Below are positions 6,457-17,931 of a DNA stretch of 25,013 bases, one piece after another (the stretch's first letter is position 1; every line of letters begins with the position of its first letter). Source of the stretch: a virus (taxonomy: Duplodnaviria > Heunggongvirae > Uroviricota > Caudoviricetes). The DNA lies in IMG/VR virus record IMGVR_UViG_3300045988_007239, positions 1-25,013 of that record. One strand, 5' to 3'. Made by a program: the position numbers and the translations under genes. Below the pieces are notes generated by a model. The model had not been told where the DNA came from, did no database searches, and saw only the letters and a list, made by a program, of their open reading frames with translations.

Positions 6457-6749
6457 TCCTGTTCACTGGCCTCTTTGGCCATCTTCAAATACTGTTCAGG
6501 GCAATGCGCCATAACGCGCTGAAACAGTTCCAGCGCCAGATTGCGTTGCCCCTCATTAAATGCCATTGCCATAGCATCCATCGGAGAGATAGCGGAAAAC
6601 ACCCGGCCTTTCTCCAGCACCGACCAGACAACGCGACGCCCCTGTTCACTGCTCATGACAAAGCGAATGTCATCAATTTCACGCTGTGCCATGTCACGTT
6701 GCTTACGGGCGTTTTCTTCTTTCAGTTGATCGTCTTCGTAATCTGTCAT
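6453..6749 (-). CDS. hypothetical protein (head assembly module)
   Basis: 98-aa ORF; overlaps portal stop and scaffold start by 4 nt each. Confidence 0.6.
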   Translation of the reverse strand: MTDYEDDQLKEENARKQRDMAQREIDDIRFVMSSEQGRRVVWSVLEKGRVFSAISPMDAMAMAFNEGQRNLALELFQRVMAHCPEQYLKMAKEASEQE

Positions 6750-8425
6750 TGTGATTGCCCACCCTGACCACTAAATGCATTCGCCATAGCTGACAAAACA
6801 CTCGGATCCGAAGTTTTAGCTTCGCTTAGCGTCTTGGCACCCTGTGCCGCCGCCATCCCCATCGCCATCATTTGTTGCTGCTGTTGTTGCTGTGCCCGTT
6901 GCTGGCGAGCCTGCTCAACCTGTTCCTGCGGAACAATGACGGTTGGAGACACTCCGGACATATCAGCGAATGCATCGATCGCCTGATCAACGTTGAGTTT
7001 GTCGAGAGCTTCTGGTTTCGCTTGCGCAAGTTGACCAATGAAGTTGACCGTGGATGCCAGACTGGACAGGCCGATAGACTTCTGCGCCTGAGCCATGACG
7101 GAAATGTATTCGACCTTCAGGGGCATACCTTCCATCGCGTCAGGTGGTGGCGGCAGCATGTTTTTACGCACCATCATCGAGAAAGCGCGGTCAATGAGAG
7201 GATTAAGACATTCGTCGTTCAGACGCTCCAGAACCGGCCCCAACATCAGAAGTTTTTCTTCTTTCATTTCGATCACCGCTTCAACAGGCATCGAGCGGGT
7301 ATTGATGTTCTGCAACATCATGAACAGATCGACAAAGTAGGCGCTGTTAATGATTTGACGAGTGTCCTGAATGTCTGCCACCAAATCTGCTGTACTGGGG
7401 TTAACCAGATAAGCAGGCCTGAAACTATCCTGACCAGTAATCTGATCGATATACGTGATGTCGCCAGGAAGAAGGGAGGCACGCTGATTCTTGAGGGAAG
7501 TCGGAGCAATCATCGGCGGATTGGTGGCTTTATCAATCAACTGCGACTTGCGCTTCTGGAGAAGCTGCAATGCCTTAACAGGTCCAAGCGCCAGCATACC
7601 CGGGCATGATGATCCATAAACATCTTCGCCGTTAACTTCCCAGCGCGGAGCCATAATTGGAAACTCATCGAATCCGGACTCACGCAACAACTTGTCGTTA
7701 TCGCCACCAACCTCGTAATAAACCGATTTGAATGGCTTGTTCTTGCTATCCAGCTTCGATGTATCGCGGTCAATGTTCGGGTAAACCGAATGCATCACCT
7801 CAATCCACTTCTCGTAGGTGCCGCTTTCCCACATGCTTTTTACGGATTCGCTGACGTTATTTAGCCCGAACTCCTGAACAAGCTGACGAACAGTCATAGA
7901 GAACTTGCGAAAACATGTGTCCACACTGCCACGAGGTGAGTTAGCCAGGTAGTAACTGCCTATCGGGAATGGCATTGTGCGAATGATGTCCTCGTCATCC
8001 TCCAGTACTGCCATTGCACCAGTGCTGTATGTGCCGAGGCTTCCGTATAACTGCGGCAGCGACTGATAGAGATTCGACTTATTGAACATATCGTTCATGC
8101 GGTTCTGCACCGCCTCAAGCCACAACTTAACAGGGCCATAATCCATCATTTCAGGATCTGGCGTAGCCAGGCGAAACCACGGACGCGCGGGGCTTGTGAT
8201 GCCTGACATCATGCCGCTGGCGAGAGTGCGCGCCGCCATAGTCCCGGTCGAATCAATAATGCGTGTATTGCGTCGATCGTTACGGTTGACCTCAGAAGTC
8301 AGAAAGCGGGAACCACGCGGGTTGATGTAATCACTCAACTCGCGCCAGTGCGGATCGAACGACTGACGCTCGCTTTCAAGTTGTGCGAACTGTTTGTTCA
8401 ATCGCTCTTTAGTTGTTTCCGCCAT
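6746..8425 (-). CDS. portal protein (T7 gp8-like head-to-tail connector)
   Basis: 559 aa, first large gene of the head module; Gln-rich C-terminus (QQRAQQQQQQQMMAMGMAAAQG) resembles the C-terminus of T7-type connectors (from memory). Confidence 0.8.
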   Translation of the reverse strand: MAETTKERLNKQFAQLESERQSFDPHWRELSDYINPRGSRFLTSEVNRNDRRNTRIIDSTGTMAARTLASGMMSGITSPARPWFRLATPDPEMMDYGPVKLWLEAVQNRMNDMFNKSNLYQSLPQLYGSLGTYSTGAMAVLEDDEDIIRTMPFPIGSYYLANSPRGSVDTCFRKFSMTVRQLVQEFGLNNVSESVKSMWESGTYEKWIEVMHSVYPNIDRDTSKLDSKNKPFKSVYYEVGGDNDKLLRESGFDEFPIMAPRWEVNGEDVYGSSCPGMLALGPVKALQLLQKRKSQLIDKATNPPMIAPTSLKNQRASLLPGDITYIDQITGQDSFRPAYLVNPSTADLVADIQDTRQIINSAYFVDLFMMLQNINTRSMPVEAVIEMKEEKLLMLGPVLERLNDECLNPLIDRAFSMMVRKNMLPPPPDAMEGMPLKVEYISVMAQAQKSIGLSSLASTVNFIGQLAQAKPEALDKLNVDQAIDAFADMSGVSPTVIVPQEQVEQARQQRAQQQQQQQMMAMGMAAAQGAKTLSEAKTSDPSVLSAMANAFSGQGGQSQ

Positions 8426-8439
8426 TTCAATGACTCCGG

Positions 8440-8646
8440 TTACTGACCAAGTAGCGTTTTACCGCTGGTATTAGCGGTTGATGTGTCGCCCTGAGAACCG
8501 GTAAGCAGCGTAGAACTACGACCAGCAGCAGCGCGACGGCGACGAGTTTCTTCGTCGCGGGCATCAACAACGGCGGCATCCTGCTCCTGTGGTGCTGCCT
8601 GAACTTCTGGTGTTGCAGGCACTGATGGTGAGCTACCCATGCACAT
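8440..8646 (-). CDS. small acidic hypothetical protein
   Basis: 68-aa ORF with GGAG 10 nt upstream of ATG, immediately upstream of portal; an alternative-frame ORF (8427-8666) overlaps, so the call is uncertain. Confidence 0.35.
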   Translation of the reverse strand: MCMGSSPSVPATPEVQAAPQEQDAAVVDARDEETRRRRAAAGRSSTLLTGSQGDTSTANTSGKTLLGQ

Positions 8647-8714
8647 ATCAATGACTCCGTACGCAATTAAATTATTACCAATTTAACCACATATGATTTA
8701 TTTATCGTAGATAG

Positions 8715-8751
8715 TTGACATTTAACGCATAAATTATTACCTTTTGGGTAA
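8715..8751 (+). promoter_or_regulatory. promoter-operator module driving the tRNA insert
   Basis: TTGACA (8715-8720) followed by perfect TTACC-ttttg-GGTAA (8737-8751); the stretch acgcataaattattacc nearly duplicates the pL-like promoter at 19351-19367. Confidence 0.45.
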
Positions 8752-9073
8752 CCAAAGAGTTCATTCCGGTTACTAACCTGACTGGCTTGTCGTTAAATTG
8801 AACAGGTGGAGTGAGCTTTTATTTTGAGCAGTACGGCGTATGGCACATGCGCCGATAGCGGTCTGGATACGTTTAAGGGGCACCCTCCCTTGCTCGGGCA
8901 AACGAACCAGGTAGCCGGAATGTGCAAGTCGAGCGGTTTTATTCCGCGCACGGGGATTCACCATCCCGGCGATTCGGTGTGACACCTCGGAAGAGACGAG
9001 GGTACAACGATGAGAGCATTTATGGAGCCGCGACAAAGTGTGGTGCCTTAACAGGCTAAGTGCTCTCAGCGTT

Positions 9074-9150
9074 GTGGCATTAGCTCAGTTGGACAGAGCA
9101 ACCGCCTTCTAAGCGGTTGGTCGCAGGTTCGAATCCTGCATGCCGCGCCA
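9074..9150 (+). tRNA. tRNA-Arg (anticodon UCU)
   Basis: 77-nt cloverleaf folded by hand: acceptor gtggcat/atgccgc (one G-U), D-arm gctc..gagc, anticodon stem accgc/gcggt with loop cuUCUaa, T-arm gcagg-ttcgaat-cctgc, encoded CCA end. Confidence 0.9.
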
Positions 9151-9193
9151 GAATCACGCCTAAGGACCGTGATGCCAGAAGTTCCATGGGCTT

Positions 9194-9235
9194 GGCGGTG
9201 ATGGTTTCCTTTGAAGGACTATCACCGCCCTTTTT
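9194..9235 (+). terminator. intrinsic terminator after tRNA
   Basis: 9-bp stem GGCGGTGAT/ATCACCGCC (9194-9202 / 9221-9229) followed by TTTTT. Confidence 0.6.
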
Positions 9236-9313
9236 ACAGCATGACGCCATTGCGATGACTTCATGCTGTAAACCCGTACAGCCACGGAAGGCATAACTCA
9301 TTGCTTCCAGTTC

Positions 9314-9336
9314 GCCCGGTTCGCCGGGCTTTTTTT
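9314..9336 (+). terminator. intrinsic terminator
   Basis: GCCCGG-ttcg-CCGGGC stem followed by 7 T; ends 11 nt before the ATG of the 118-aa ORF. Confidence 0.7.
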
Positions 9337-9347
9337 AAGGTGAGATT

Positions 9348-9704
9348 ATGAACGACCAGCAAATCGAAAAAGAAATCGTTGAGAAAGGCAAAACGGCACC
9401 GCGAGTTACGCCTCAATATATCGAAAGCATCATTCTTGAAGAGCATTTCTTTACTGCTTATGACGGCATTCGTGCCGCCAATATGGGCGTTGGCGATTCA
9501 TGGACAGCGCATAAATCTACAGACCTCCTGACTTTCTGCGTACTGGTGCTGAAGAATGGCTTCACCGTCACCGGAGAGAGTACCTGTGCAAGTCCGGAAA
9601 ATTTTGATGCAGAAATTGGTCGGAAGATTGCCCGGCAGAATGCTGTAAACAAAATCTGGATGCTTGAAGGTTACTTGCTGAAGCAGAAGTTAAGCGAGCA
9701 ATAA
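9348..9704 (+). CDS. conserved phage protein of unknown function (possibly N4 gp49 / Sf6 gp66-like family)
   Basis: 118-aa ORF with AAGGTGAG RBS, on the opposite strand to flanking terminase and portal genes; family assignment from memory only. Confidence 0.7.
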   Translation: MNDQQIEKEIVEKGKTAPRVTPQYIESIILEEHFFTAYDGIRAANMGVGDSWTAHKSTDLLTFCVLVLKNGFTVTGESTCASPENFDAEIGRKIARQNAVNKIWMLEGYLLKQKLSEQ

Positions 9705-9720
9705 CACCGTGACATGTCAC

Positions 9721-9751
9721 AAACAGCCAGCTCATAGGCTGGCTTTGTTTT
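9721..9751. terminator. bidirectional terminator between insert ORF and terL
   Basis: AGCCAGC-tcatag-GCTGGCT stem, A-rich before and T-rich after; located where + and - strand genes converge. Confidence 0.5.
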
Positions 9752-9794: not shown

Positions 9795-11270
9795 TTAAGC
9801 ATAGGGATCGTAATCTGTGATGGCCTTGCCTTGCTGGTTCTGCTGCCCGGGAATTCGCAGACGCTTCGACACAGGGAACGCAAACGTCAGCAGTAGCGCA
9901 TCGCCTTTACCAGGAGAACGCCCAAGCCGCTCCTTGATATCTTCCTTCGGTTCGATAACGATTTTACCGTCCACGCGAACTTTGTACTCTGCCGCCGACA
10001 GGTCGTCCGCTGTTTCCTGGTCATCCAGCATGCCGCCCAGCCTCAGCCATGTCTTGCATGAGTTGAACATCTCCCCACGCTTGTTGAGCATCTGCGGGTC
10101 AGTAGACGCGCCACCGAACGGAACAAGTTGCCATGTGCGCCCCCAACCGTCACCGATTGACTTCAGCCCGGTACCGTAACCGAAGTCGATGAACACCGCG
10201 TCAGCCTGATACTGGTCTTCAAAGTCAGCGATACGCTTTGCCATAATCAGATCGTCAGTGGTCTTGTTGCCGGTCCACAGCACCTTACTGTGCAGCCCCT
10301 GCCGCAGGTATATCACCGCGTCATCAACACCGGAGTATGCAGGGTCAACGCCGATTATCACCGGAGCATGTGCCACCTGCGCAGCAGTTACCACCCGTTT
10401 CATTGCCTCGTCAGTAAGACCGGTAGGGATAAACTGCAATTCAGATGCATCAGGGAATATGCCGCGCACACGGATTTTAACGAAGTCGCTGTCTTCCCCG
10501 TAGTCATCAACCCATTTCTGCAACTGCTGTTTGTTGGTACCTTCCACCGTCCGACTGTCAATCTGCGCAGTTTTCCAGCGGTGTTTATACTTGCGGAAAC
10601 ATTCACGGAAACGTCCGGTATTACGCGTCGGGTTTCCGAACGCCACCCAGATAATCTCAGTGTCTTCGTCCGTTAGCGCACCTTCGGCAACTTCCCACAC
10701 CAGATCCGCAATGTTCGACGCTTCATCAAACACCACGATGATGCGTTTGCGCTCGTTGTGTAGTCCGGCGAATGCCTCAGTGTTGTGCTCAGACCAGGGG
10801 ATTGCGTCAGCTCGCCACCGCTTGTCGTGTCCAGGATCATTGCTGTACATCGCGGTAGCGGTACAGGTAAACCAGTCTTTCGTGATGGCAAGGTTCGACC
10901 ACTTGATAATTTCCGGCCAGGTCTTCGTTCGTAGCTGGTTGTCGGTGTTGGCGGTCACCACGACCTTACAATCCTCGCAAGTGGACATGCCCCAGTTGAT
11001 CAGCATTGAGATGAATGCGGATTTACCAATACCGTGACCAGAAGCGCGTGCCAGCATAAGCGGCTGATAGCGCGTCTCTGGATTCTGCAGGTGATCACGT
11101 ATCTCTCGGAACGCATCAGCCTGCCACTGACGTGGGCCAGTAGCATGTGCCAGTTCAGTCCCCTCTTCCCCCCACGGGAACGCATAGAGGGCATAACCAA
11201 GCGGATCGTGAGTAAACCCTGCAATATCCTCGATCAACTGCTCTTCAGGAGATAACACTGTATCTGTCAC
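9795..11270 (-). CDS. terL: terminase large subunit
   Basis: 491 aa; Walker A (ASGHGIGKS), Walker B-like IIVVFDEAS, C-terminal nuclease-like region; start overlaps small-subunit stop. Confidence 0.9.
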   Translation of the reverse strand: MTDTVLSPEEQLIEDIAGFTHDPLGYALYAFPWGEEGTELAHATGPRQWQADAFREIRDHLQNPETRYQPLMLARASGHGIGKSAFISMLINWGMSTCEDCKVVVTANTDNQLRTKTWPEIIKWSNLAITKDWFTCTATAMYSNDPGHDKRWRADAIPWSEHNTEAFAGLHNERKRIIVVFDEASNIADLVWEVAEGALTDEDTEIIWVAFGNPTRNTGRFRECFRKYKHRWKTAQIDSRTVEGTNKQQLQKWVDDYGEDSDFVKIRVRGIFPDASELQFIPTGLTDEAMKRVVTAAQVAHAPVIIGVDPAYSGVDDAVIYLRQGLHSKVLWTGNKTTDDLIMAKRIADFEDQYQADAVFIDFGYGTGLKSIGDGWGRTWQLVPFGGASTDPQMLNKRGEMFNSCKTWLRLGGMLDDQETADDLSAAEYKVRVDGKIVIEPKEDIKERLGRSPGKGDALLLTFAFPVSKRLRIPGQQNQQGKAITDYDPYA

Positions 11271-11863
11271 TGATTACCATCCTGACGTTCTTTGAGTCGC
11301 TTCCTGGCTGCTGCTATGCGATCAGCAATTGTCACATTCACATTAACATCCAGGCGTTCTTTGAATGCGTTGACGTCGACGTGCTTACCAATCAGTTCGA
11401 GGTTCTTCACCTTGTCAGGCCATTTAATTTTTTTGAGGATTGTCTCTATCGAATCCTCGTTCATGTTCATGATGGTCGATGACAGATCAAAGCCGCTAAG
11501 CGTAGTGCGCCAGATTTTCGGCCACTCGCGGATTGGTTTAAGGCTCCCATCGTCGTTGAGGATGTCGATCACGTCCATCTGGTCGATCTCCACCAGGCGC
11601 ATGAGAACGTAATCAGCACTGACGCGCATTCGTTTGTTGCGCTCCTCCATCAACTCGGCAATCCGTTTCTGAATGCGTTCATCGCGCATCATGACACTGG
11701 CTTTAACTGCCGCTGTATTTGGGGAGAATCCTGCGTTAATCGCTGCCTGAGTCTGGTTTTCAGGCGTTTTGATGTATGACTGGCAATAAGCCTCCTGCAT
11801 TGCAGTTAGTGGCTTAAATTGCGTTGATTTGCGTTTATAGGTTTTAGGTTCAGCAGGCATCAT
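11267..11863 (-). CDS. terS: terminase small subunit
   Basis: Directly upstream of and overlapping terL. Start set at the internal ATG-ATG (11863) with GGTGG RBS, because the 26 codons above it in the track ORF contain an operator palindrome. Confidence 0.75.
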   Translation of the reverse strand: MMPAEPKTYKRKSTQFKPLTAMQEAYCQSYIKTPENQTQAAINAGFSPNTAAVKASVMMRDERIQKRIAELMEERNKRMRVSADYVLMRLVEIDQMDVIDILNDDGSLKPIREWPKIWRTTLSGFDLSSTIMNMNEDSIETILKKIKWPDKVKNLELIGKHVDVNAFKERLDVNVNVTIADRIAAARKRLKERQDGNQ

Positions 11864-11880
11864 AACCACCGTGGTAATAG

Positions 11881-11895
11881 TTACCGTTGTGGTAA
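11881..11895. promoter_or_regulatory. operator-type palindrome upstream of terS
   Basis: Perfect TTACC-gttgt-GGTAA, flanked by GGTAAtag repeats, 18 nt upstream of the proposed terS start. Confidence 0.5.
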
Positions 11896-11981
11896 TAGTA
11901 CCATGCAAAATAAAGCCGCCATAGTTGGCGGCAGTATTCAAAACCCATCAAATTCATCATGCATAATCTACTCGTGACATT

Positions 11982-17129: not shown

Positions 17130-17931
17130 CCCACACCCCTTCTATCCAGTCAGTGTTATTCCAGTCAAGCTCATCGCTTTTCCCGGCGTTTTTTGATTTT
17201 CCCCTGATATGATTTACGTGCCTGGCGAATTTTTGTTCCCACTGAACCTGCGTGAACACTTTGCCCTCAGCCATCCAGTAATCCCGGAATGCAGCAAGTT
17301 CAGCAGGTGTAAATTCCGGTTCCGGCAGGGCCGTTCCCCACAGCGCAGCACGCCGTCGAAAATCCGGCGATGGATGCCAGCCATCGGTCATCGGAAATTT
17401 CCCAATAGGTTCACTCAGGCCATCCAGAAATGCAGGTTCTGCCACCTGCAACGGCGTACCGTTCGCTTCACTGGTCGGATCACTCTCGCGCGCGTGTGCT
17501 ATGTGTGGGGTTTTATATATATCTTCCTCTTCCTCTTCCTCTGGTAACTCCTTTTGTAACGCTGTTGGCGTTACTTTTTGCGTTACTCGTTTTCGATGCT
17601 CTGCCACTCTTCTATTCGTAAGTGCACGTTTTTTCGATGATTCTCCATTATGTCGCTCAAAGTTTGGAAGAATTAGTTTGCCGTCATGATAAGCAAGCCA
17701 TCCGACGCTAATGAGGGCGTCAGCAAATCCTGTAATAAAAGCGAGTCTATCAAGTACTCCTTTTGTAACGCTGCCAGCGTTACCGTCTATTGTTTGCTGG
17801 TCAGCCCATGCCCATATACGAACCAGCTTTCCAAGAACAGCATCTGGATCAATACCCAGAATTTCTGCTATCTGAAAAATTTCAGGTTTATCAGGAGTGA
17901 TAACTTCAACCTTAATCCAGCTGCTTGCCAT
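17101..17931 (-). CDS. replication initiator (replisome organiser N-domain, DnaT-like C-domain)
   Basis: Start set at ATG 17931 ([10 protein letters not shown]..., GAGGGG RBS); poly-Glu linker; C-terminal DnaT-like region; contains nucleotide-level iteron-like repeats. Confidence 0.75.
17543..17792. repeat. candidate replication origin: iteron-like repeats inside the initiator gene
   Basis: 18-bp direct repeat actccttttgtaacgctg at 17547-17564 and 17765-17782; each carries GTAACGC-N5-GCGTTAC (17556-17574, 17774-17792), plus an extra GCGTTAC at 17580-17586. Confidence 0.45.

Follow-up and report, generated by a model that had tools for sequence, protein, structure and literature searches.

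A conserved pseudoknotted RNA with an exchangeable tRNA or tRNA-like domain in an early-transcription module of temperate Enterobacterales phages

In the phage DNA studied here, a short cassette read from the + strand lies between terL and gp3, inside a packaging and head gene block that is otherwise read from the - strand. Such a position raises the question of what the cassette is for, and in particular what is encoded in the long stretch between its promoter and its tRNA gene. A sequence-only reading had described the cassette as an insert carrying a captured promoter, and had taken the tRNA as its purpose and the upstream 300 nt as a mere long leader. We have analysed the cassette by comparison with its relatives, by covariation and by scans of the complete window, i.e. 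the whole stretch of 25,013 nucleotides.

The window is from a phage or prophage of the phiV10/epsilon15 type (Uetakevirus). Identity to phiV10 and related phages is 96-97% across the cassette region, and positions 8830-9075 match an E. coli chromosome at 100%. The cassette itself is confirmed. On the + strand it consists of an operator-overlapped promoter, a structured RNA, a tRNA-Arg(UCU), two terminators, a 118-aa ORF and a third terminator, and the opposite orientation noticed earlier is real, as the flanking terS, terL, gp3 and portal genes, together with the protease and major head protein genes, are all on the - strand. Coordinates are collected in Table 1.

Table 1. Features of the cassette and its flanking genes, in window coordinates.
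Feature	Position	Strand	Basis
portal	6746-8425	-	
gp3	8440-8646	-	
Early promoter and overlapping repressor operator	8715-8751	+	operator motif, shared string, arrangement in relatives
Variable 5' leader, from presumed transcription start (inferred) to conserved RNA	8752-8833	+	
Structured RNA, conserved core	8834-9004	+	covariation, covariance model, G-U pairs
P1	8834-8854	+	
P2	8859-8865 with 8908-8910 and 8914-8917	+	
P3 hairpin, UCCYUU loop motif	~8866-8906	+	
Near-invariant 19-mer	8910-8928	+	
P4	~8929-8951	+	
P5	8953-8967	+	
Pseudoknot	8959-8962 with 8976-8979	+	
P6, loop GAAGAGA	8985-9001	+	
P7 helix and hypervariable apical insert	9005-9073	+	both-side changes in pairs
P7 long-range helix, strands	9005-9019 with 9060-9073	+	
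tRNA-Arg(UCU), CCA encoded	9074-9150	+	ARAGORN, Rfam
Small hairpin ATCACG...CGTGAT, right after tRNA	9153-9173	+	read from sequence
Terminator T1, stem and U-run	9194-9235	+	terminator scan (stem 9194-9229), homology
Terminator T2, GCCCGG-TTCG-CCGGGC and U7	9314-9336	+	terminator scan (stem 9314-9329)
Cargo ORF, 118 aa, Phage_gp49_66	9348-9704	+	PF13876
Terminator T3, cassette end, facing terL end	9725-9744	+	terminator scan
terL	9795-11270	-	
terS	11267-11941	-	

The promoter has a perfect -35 box TTGACA (8715-8720), a spacer of 17 nt and a poor -10 box TACCTT (8738-8743), and it is not called by a generic sigma-70 scan. The arrangement TTGACA-17-TACCTT with the operator recurs at the loci of relatives. 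The operator, TTACC-N5-GGTAA at 8737-8751, overlaps the promoter. In the window this motif occurs 11 times against an expectation of 0.38, and most of the copies lie in the immunity region. As had been noticed from the sequence, the promoter core has a counterpart in the immunity region, with the string ACGCATAA(A)TTATTACCT at both 8725 and 19352. In epsilon15 a repressor site is annotated at the homologous place. Since the operator motif is shared with the immunity region, the proposed repressor-linked control of the cassette is supported. The 5' leader following the presumed start site differs in length among relatives, from about 80 nt here to some 30-40 nt at other loci.

In the terminator scan the region gave 6 terminator-like sites against 1.8 expected, and both terminators placed after the tRNA in the sequence-only reading were recovered. 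The U-run of T2 abuts the ribosome-binding site of the cargo ORF. This ORF is a real gene of the family PF13876, Phage_gp49_66 (E = 1e-33; 116.1 bits against a cut-off of 27), which also matches phrog_322, and in relatives its slot is filled by unrelated ORFs. The third terminator had been read as bidirectional. It passes the scan on the + strand, and a terminator is annotated there in phiV10, but it fails on the - strand, where its tail is GTTTGTGA. The small hairpin following the tRNA is also present after the tRNA-like domain in some relatives (L110, L148).

That the cassette is an insert with a captured promoter is not supported; it is common to relatives from Escherichia, Klebsiella, Enterobacter and Salmonella. 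Epsilon15, which has lost the core of the RNA, the tRNA and T1 while T2 and the ORF are retained, looks like a deletion derivative. For transcription of the head genes, no sigma-70-like promoter was found on either strand in an insensitive scan. T1 and T2 are oriented such that - strand transcription would be spared, and T3 is weak in that direction. Head gene transcripts may therefore plausibly come from terL by read-through that runs antisense to the cassette.

The 'long leader' is present as a stretch of sequence but is not a plain leader. Positions 8834-9073 are a conserved, structured and pseudoknotted RNA that is about 240 nt long and has a conserved core of some 165 nt, and we regard the existence of this RNA family as almost certain. 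Pairing statistics were calculated on an alignment of 32 diverse copies. In this alignment eight helices were counted, including an H-type pseudoknot, comprising 42 pairs in total. Pairing was 97.8% over the 42 pairs, compared with 32-48% when the partners were slid. Compensatory changes, i.e. changes on both sides of a pair, were found in 20 of the 42 pairs. The observed values were reached in none of 500 shuffles.

A covariance model built for the core only matches positions 8833-9004 with 145 bits. A second set of 52 matches (44 distinct sequences), largely separate from the first although three loci had also supplied model sequences, was used for evaluation; it takes in 24 matches from species genomes, covering ten named genera and two MAG contigs. 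In the second set 98.4% of the pairs were formed against 30-41% with slid partners, and 10 of 25 pairs were compensatory. G-U pairs are frequent in the helices; on the other strand these would be A-C mismatches, and the transcribed strand is thus the + strand.

Near-invariant single-stranded blocks separate the helices. One of these, the 19-mer GGTAGCCGGAATGTGCAAG, is unchanged in 48 of 56 independently anchored copies. The stem of P3 is short and covaries, and its large loop begins with UCCYUU. P4 and the tip of P7 are hypervariable. In P7, changes on both sides were found in 8 of the 13 pairs, and its inserts differ among otherwise similar copies, with T-loop-like hairpins in some of them. 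The 3' strand of P7 ends in ...CGUU and is followed directly by position +1 of the tRNA.

In searches against Rfam 15, at gathering and at permissive thresholds, only the tRNA was matched; for 8834-9073 no match appeared even at E <= 10. Neither nhmmer nor the covariance model found a second copy of the element, in the window or at any locus. A literature search by keyword and by sequence string found no published description of this RNA.

The tRNA gene passes the cloverleaf check by tRNA software: ARAGORN calls it with anticodon UCU, and it scores 69.4 bits with RF00005 against a gathering score of 29. CCA is encoded (9148-9150). Compared with argU of K-12, the D-arm, T-arm and anticodon loop are alike and the acceptor and anticodon stems differ. 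Such a difference would agree with an evasion of anticodon nucleases but is no evidence of it. The element is accompanied by a tRNA-Arg(UCU) in 31 of 129 loci, and about three quarters of the loci are without a functional tRNA. At one locus (L136) the follower is a tRNA with anticodon CAU, and in P1-like phages a tRNA-Ile2 is instead found just upstream of the element. The other followers are degenerate tRNA-like domains, in which the acceptor stem GUGGU/ACCAC and often the T-arm are kept and the rest is lost. Whether tRNA or GUGGU...T-arm...ACCAC domain, the follower begins at a conserved GUU|GUGG junction. Judged from this comparison of loci, the tRNA is a replaceable part of a larger conserved RNA unit and not its conserved core.

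Acceptor stem and T-arm are the parts of a tRNA that are recognised by RNase P. As these are the parts retained in the degenerate followers, we infer that RNase P cleaves at 9073|9074. T1, which lies beyond the follower, is homologous in 54 of 72 non-redundant contexts, with the form GGCGGU...ACCGCC followed by a U-run. Covariation is seen in the inner stem of T1, and the UCCYUU motif of the P3 loop recurs in the T1 loop. A tandem second terminator about 100 nt past T1 recurs in contexts of the Uetakevirus type, where variable cargo ORFs follow T1 and T2.

The element is carried by 1075 of 5426 complete E. coli genomes, with no PGAP annotation over it. Two exact-pattern scans of viral contigs each gave at least 120 loci. 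Among species-representative genomes it is confined to the Enterobacterales, apart from two tiny MAG contigs. To unannotated DNA of lambdoid phages (cdtI, mEp460, Ayreon, Stx2c and some Stx2a) identity is about 82% over positions 8833-9075, and to P1, P7, D6, SJ46 and RCS47 it is about 80% over positions 8833-8995. The element is thus found in three unrelated phage types, Uetakevirus, lambdoid and P1, each time in an early, repressor-controlled position. Of the 72 contexts, 29, of the lambdoid kind, have a CI-like repressor gene on the same strand that ends some 110-155 nt upstream. The cassette is one representative of a mobile module for early transcription that is carried by temperate phages of the Enterobacterales. 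The order of the module is repressor-controlled promoter, RNA of about 240 nt, tRNA or degenerate tRNA-like acceptor/T-arm domain, and T1, to which T2, the cargo ORF and T3 are added here.

In lambdoid contexts the element sits downstream of pL-type promoters. The order in mEp460 is a terminator closing cI, two operator copies with a pL-like promoter, the element (beginning about 40 nt past the presumed start site), the tRNA-like domain and T1; a second hairpin with a U-run comes next, and then the early-left operon through xis/int. The mEp460 locus also contains a C4 RNA, at a separate place. In the lambdoid phages the whole early-left operon, to xis/int, thus lies behind the element and T1, and its first ORF is phrog_204. 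No ORF fits between pL and T1 in these phages. An N gene is annotated in none of cdtI, mEp460, Stx2a_WGPS2, 1720a-02 and Ayreon; Q is annotated in Ayreon. P1 has the core between trnI and ban, within the ban operon controlled by C1; P7, tRNA-like domain and T1 are missing there, and no terminator separates core and ban.

Several known systems resemble the unit in part. The put RNA acts in cis, without a phage protein, on terminators downstream of it, and requires the zinc-binding domain of the RNA polymerase beta' subunit. Like putL and putR of HK022 and the putL-like site of HK639, the element lies just past a repressor-controlled early-left promoter in lambdoid phages without annotated N. 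As with put, terminators and then early genes follow, and the stretch from the promoter to the first terminator is free of protein genes. The put RNA is about 70 nt long with two stem-loops (PMC9378689), whereas the element has about 240 nt and at least seven helices plus a pseudoknot. It is further distinguished from put by being present in one copy per locus, with none after pR, by its occurrence in Uetakeviruses and P1, and by being fused to a terminator of its own and to a handle that is a tRNA or tRNA-like. Membership of the put family was rejected, as no homology was found at HK639 34187-34312 or HK022 25-31 kb with BLAST, nhmmer or the covariance model with filters off. A visual likeness to put (a CGGCG...CAUGCG hairpin and GGAAGAG) failed on folding by eye.

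Like lambda nut, the element is placed at the head of the pL transcript. P6, a 5-bp hairpin with the purine loop GAAGAGA, recalls boxB, the loop of which is GAAGA in lambda, and the 3' strand of P7 contains in many copies UGCUCUU(U), resembling boxA of lambda nut and rrn. In contrast to lambda, no N gene is annotated in the lambdoid phages carrying the element. We judge the boxA/boxB likeness coincidental; for boxA this is probable because the string is base-paired in P7 and is replaced in covarying copies rather than conserved. The CI RNA of P4 and the c4 RNA of P1/P7 are antisense regulators of about 70 nt that are matured by RNase P. These, and the MALAT1-mascRNA pair, share with the element the layout of a functional RNA followed by a tRNA-like acceptor/T-arm and a putative 3' end made by RNase P; the CI and c4 families are in Rfam, however, and gave no match here. 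The tRNA-Arg(UCU) is complete and argU-related and so resembles the rare-codon tRNA genes of phages (ileZ-argN-argO of Stx phages, the tRNAs of P1); here, by contrast, it is an exchangeable part of the larger unit.

We tentatively favour the reading, based on position, that the RNA is a cis-acting antitermination (read-through) RNA, similar in function to put of HK022 and structurally unrelated to it. A terminator of -21 to -24 kcal/mol before the early-left operon needs to be bypassed, and the RNA is the sole conserved candidate between promoter and terminator. Derepression of the early promoter would start a transcript carrying the structured RNA, which would work in cis, either on its own polymerase or on the terminators that follow, so that only transcription from the early promoter would pass T1 (and T2) into the downstream genes. 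T1 and T2 are unrelated; if both are passed, a processive rather than a terminator-specific effect is indicated. The tRNA-Arg(UCU) would be a functional passenger, whose acceptor/T-arm may double as the RNase P site freeing the RNA at its 3' end.

In favour of this mechanism, the cargo ORF sits behind T1 and T2, and the lambdoid early-left genes sit behind T1 in phages without annotated N. The placement is early and under repressor control in all three phage types, and T1 is inherited together with the RNA in 54 of 72 contexts. The genes behind the unit show no promoter of their own, and none was called between T1/T2 and the cargo ORF, in a crude scan that misses even the cassette's own promoter. 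Several observations argue against it, among them the lack of homology to the put-type RNAs of HK639 and HK022. The conserved RNase P handle hints that a discrete, released RNA matters, which fits an RNA acting in trans at least as well, and a conserved T1 would also be expected of a stand-alone ncRNA gene. Epsilon15 has kept T2 and the ORF without core and tRNA, and P1 offers no terminator to be passed ahead of ban. When a lambdoid early-left operon was searched for many terminators, as a test of processivity, canonical ones were not in excess past T1, in a scan that also misses the long-looped T1. The element is present once per locus, and the pR side has no copy of it. More tentatively still, the RNA may found a new class of large, pseudoknotted, protein-independent antiterminators, or of other regulatory RNAs directed at RNA polymerase or terminators, and would bring along both an RNase P handle and a checkpoint terminator. 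Lambdoid phages without annotated N (cdtI, mEp460, SfV-type, Stx2c and some Stx2a) may then have in it the early antitermination device that they seemed to lack, and it would operate also in Uetakeviruses and in the ban operon of P1.

The most serious competitor of cis read-through, possible in our view but somewhat unlikely, is a stand-alone early ncRNA acting in trans. Promoter, RNA, tRNA (or tRNA-like domain) and T1 would then be a complete RNA gene, from which RNase P would free a stable RNA, about 240-320 nt long. This RNA would bind to some conserved target in the host and so serve host take-over, anti-defence or the choice between lysis and lysogeny, and the downstream genes would be reached by leaky read-through or from undetected promoters. 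This agrees with the exact abutment of P7 on the tRNA, with the retention in the tRNA-like variants of just those parts that RNase P recognises, with the conservation of T1 within the unit, with the established maturation of the P4 CI and P1/P7 c4 RNAs by RNase P, and with the extreme conservation of single-stranded blocks such as the 19-mer, which fits binding to a conserved host molecule. It leaves unexplained why the unit is placed exactly where it separates pL from all of the early-left operon in lambdoid phages without annotated N, and why the ribosome-binding site of the cargo ORF abuts T2; moreover, P1 keeps the core as part of the ban leader in the absence of P7, tRNA-like domain and T1. 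Appreciably less probable is a conditional, riboswitch-like attenuator, in which the core would sense a ligand or the state of the cell and control T1 only, for example by docking of the T1 pyrimidine loop on the core. An aptamer-like complexity, with a pseudoknot and invariant joining regions, and a conserved partner in T1, whose UCCYUU loop is shared with P3 and shows complementarity to portions of both GCAAG and the invariant P6 loop GGAAGAG, speak for such a device. Against it, between core and T1 lie 150-450 nt that vary in sequence and take in an entire tRNA, passage through T2 is not accounted for, no known riboswitch class in Rfam 15 matches, and P1 has no T1. Docking of the P3 or T1 loop to P6 is without support from covariation, as the partners are invariant.

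That the cassette serves the tRNA, by reading rare AGA codons or by evading anticodon nucleases, as first proposed, now seems quite improbable. The tRNA is complete and good, with CCA encoded and with stems that differ from those of the host argU, and the accompanying tRNAs read rare codons (Arg-UCU in 31 loci, CAU in P1-like phages and L136). The supposed leader is, however, conserved far beyond what a leader calls for, and it persists in the roughly three quarters of loci that are without a functional tRNA. AGA accounts for 22 of 6160 codons (3.6 per 1000), in early or regulatory genes and one tail gene, and is absent from terS, terL, gp3, portal, protease and major capsid; a role of the tRNA in late-gene translation is therefore unsupported. 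Hardly credible, finally, is conservation due to a protein-coding gene or to a DNA-level site for binding, packaging or recombination. Hypothetical proteins are annotated over the region (e.g. phiV10p04 and mEp460_037), and IHF, repressor and RNase III sites are annotated nearby in epsilon15. Protein coding was rejected, as no ORF is conserved in the element and the longest open frames switch strand and frame between copies. Indels in the variable hairpins, compensatory changes that keep the pairing, and G-U pairs that would be A-C mismatches on the other strand speak against this explanation.

An RNA with a conservation of ribozyme or riboswitch grade has thus gone unannotated in about one fifth of the complete E. 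coli genomes, in Shiga-toxin phages and in P1. As an antiterminator, should that reading hold, it would explain how the early-left genes for recombination and excision/integration are switched on in a large group of lambdoid phages without annotated N, and antitermination would have been solved by RNA a second time, independently of put of HK022. If it acts in trans, it would be a new early RNA effector of phages with a maturation design dependent on RNase P. Either way, calls of hypothetical proteins over the element should end in annotation pipelines, and the tRNA-Arg should be read as one exchangeable component of the larger unit. The hypervariable insert of P7, together with the swappable tRNA or tRNA-like domain, provides a natural system for the study of modular RNA evolution.

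The tip of P7, a long-range helix of the conserved structured RNA, carries unrelated inserts of 10-120 nt in RNAs that are otherwise near-identical, as seen in the window and in the homologous tips of loci L015, L082, L098 and L109. The tip is a swappable module. Several of the inserts contain T-loop-like hairpins (GGUUCGAUUCC). The 3' strand of P7, in the window and in most relatives, frequently carries the string UGCUCUU(U), which resembles the boxA of rrn operons and lambda nut sites. This likeness is probably coincidental, since the string is base-paired and is substituted in covarying copies. The viral contig L192 seems to hold a tandem second copy of the P7 3' domain, positioned after the first GUGG junction.

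Coordinates of the features described, by locus
Feature	Locus	Position	Sequence or score
12-nt exact direct repeat, two copies	window	8668-8679; 8730-8741	TAAATTATTACC
P7 tip	window	9020-9059	
P7 3' strand, with boxA-like string	window	9060-9070	UGCUCUU(U)
terS ORF (- strand)	window	11267-11941	
Two operator-like palindromes, side by side	window	11863-11895	TAACCACCGTGGTAA, TTACCGTTGTGGTAA
Second palindrome type, two sites	window	17547-17574; 17756-17783	GTAACGCTGTTGGCGTTAC, GTAACGCTGCCAGCGTTAC
P1-P3 remnant	epsilon15 (L005)	2470-2730	
C4 antisense RNA and isrK RNA	mEp460 (L133)	706-894	83.6 bits; 67 bits
Element copy	vB_SmeS_BUCT709 (L008)	1443-1592	147 bits
Apparent second P7 3' domain	L192	~237-390 nt past element start	AAGAGCACU...AGUGCUCUUUCCGUUGUG

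Only helices P1-P3 of the structured RNA are left in epsilon15, where the sequence then resumes in the spacer between terminators T1 and T2, so the deletion takes in the core of the RNA along with the tRNA and T1. The remaining piece was annotated by the authors of that genome as an RNase III site. The C4 and isrK RNAs of mEp460 both belong to known families; they are located in the antirepressor region of lambdoid phages in which the new RNA is also present. A full-scoring copy of the element was found in vB_SmeS_BUCT709, a phage whose recorded host is Stenotrophomonas, whereas the genome matches to the element are all from Enterobacterales; the host assignment or the origin of this phage may be worth a second look.

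In the window, the two copies of the 12-nt direct repeat are 62 nt apart. One is within the cassette promoter; the other is on the opposite side, directly upstream of gp3. The repeat may belong to a divergent region controlling the head genes. The second type of palindrome, in the regulatory region, is contained in 28-nt direct repeats spaced 209 nt apart and may be the site of a further regulator. The operator-like palindromes lie within, or at the beginning of, the terS ORF. Their position suggests either that the block of packaging/late genes is under repressor control, or that the true terS is shorter than the ORF.
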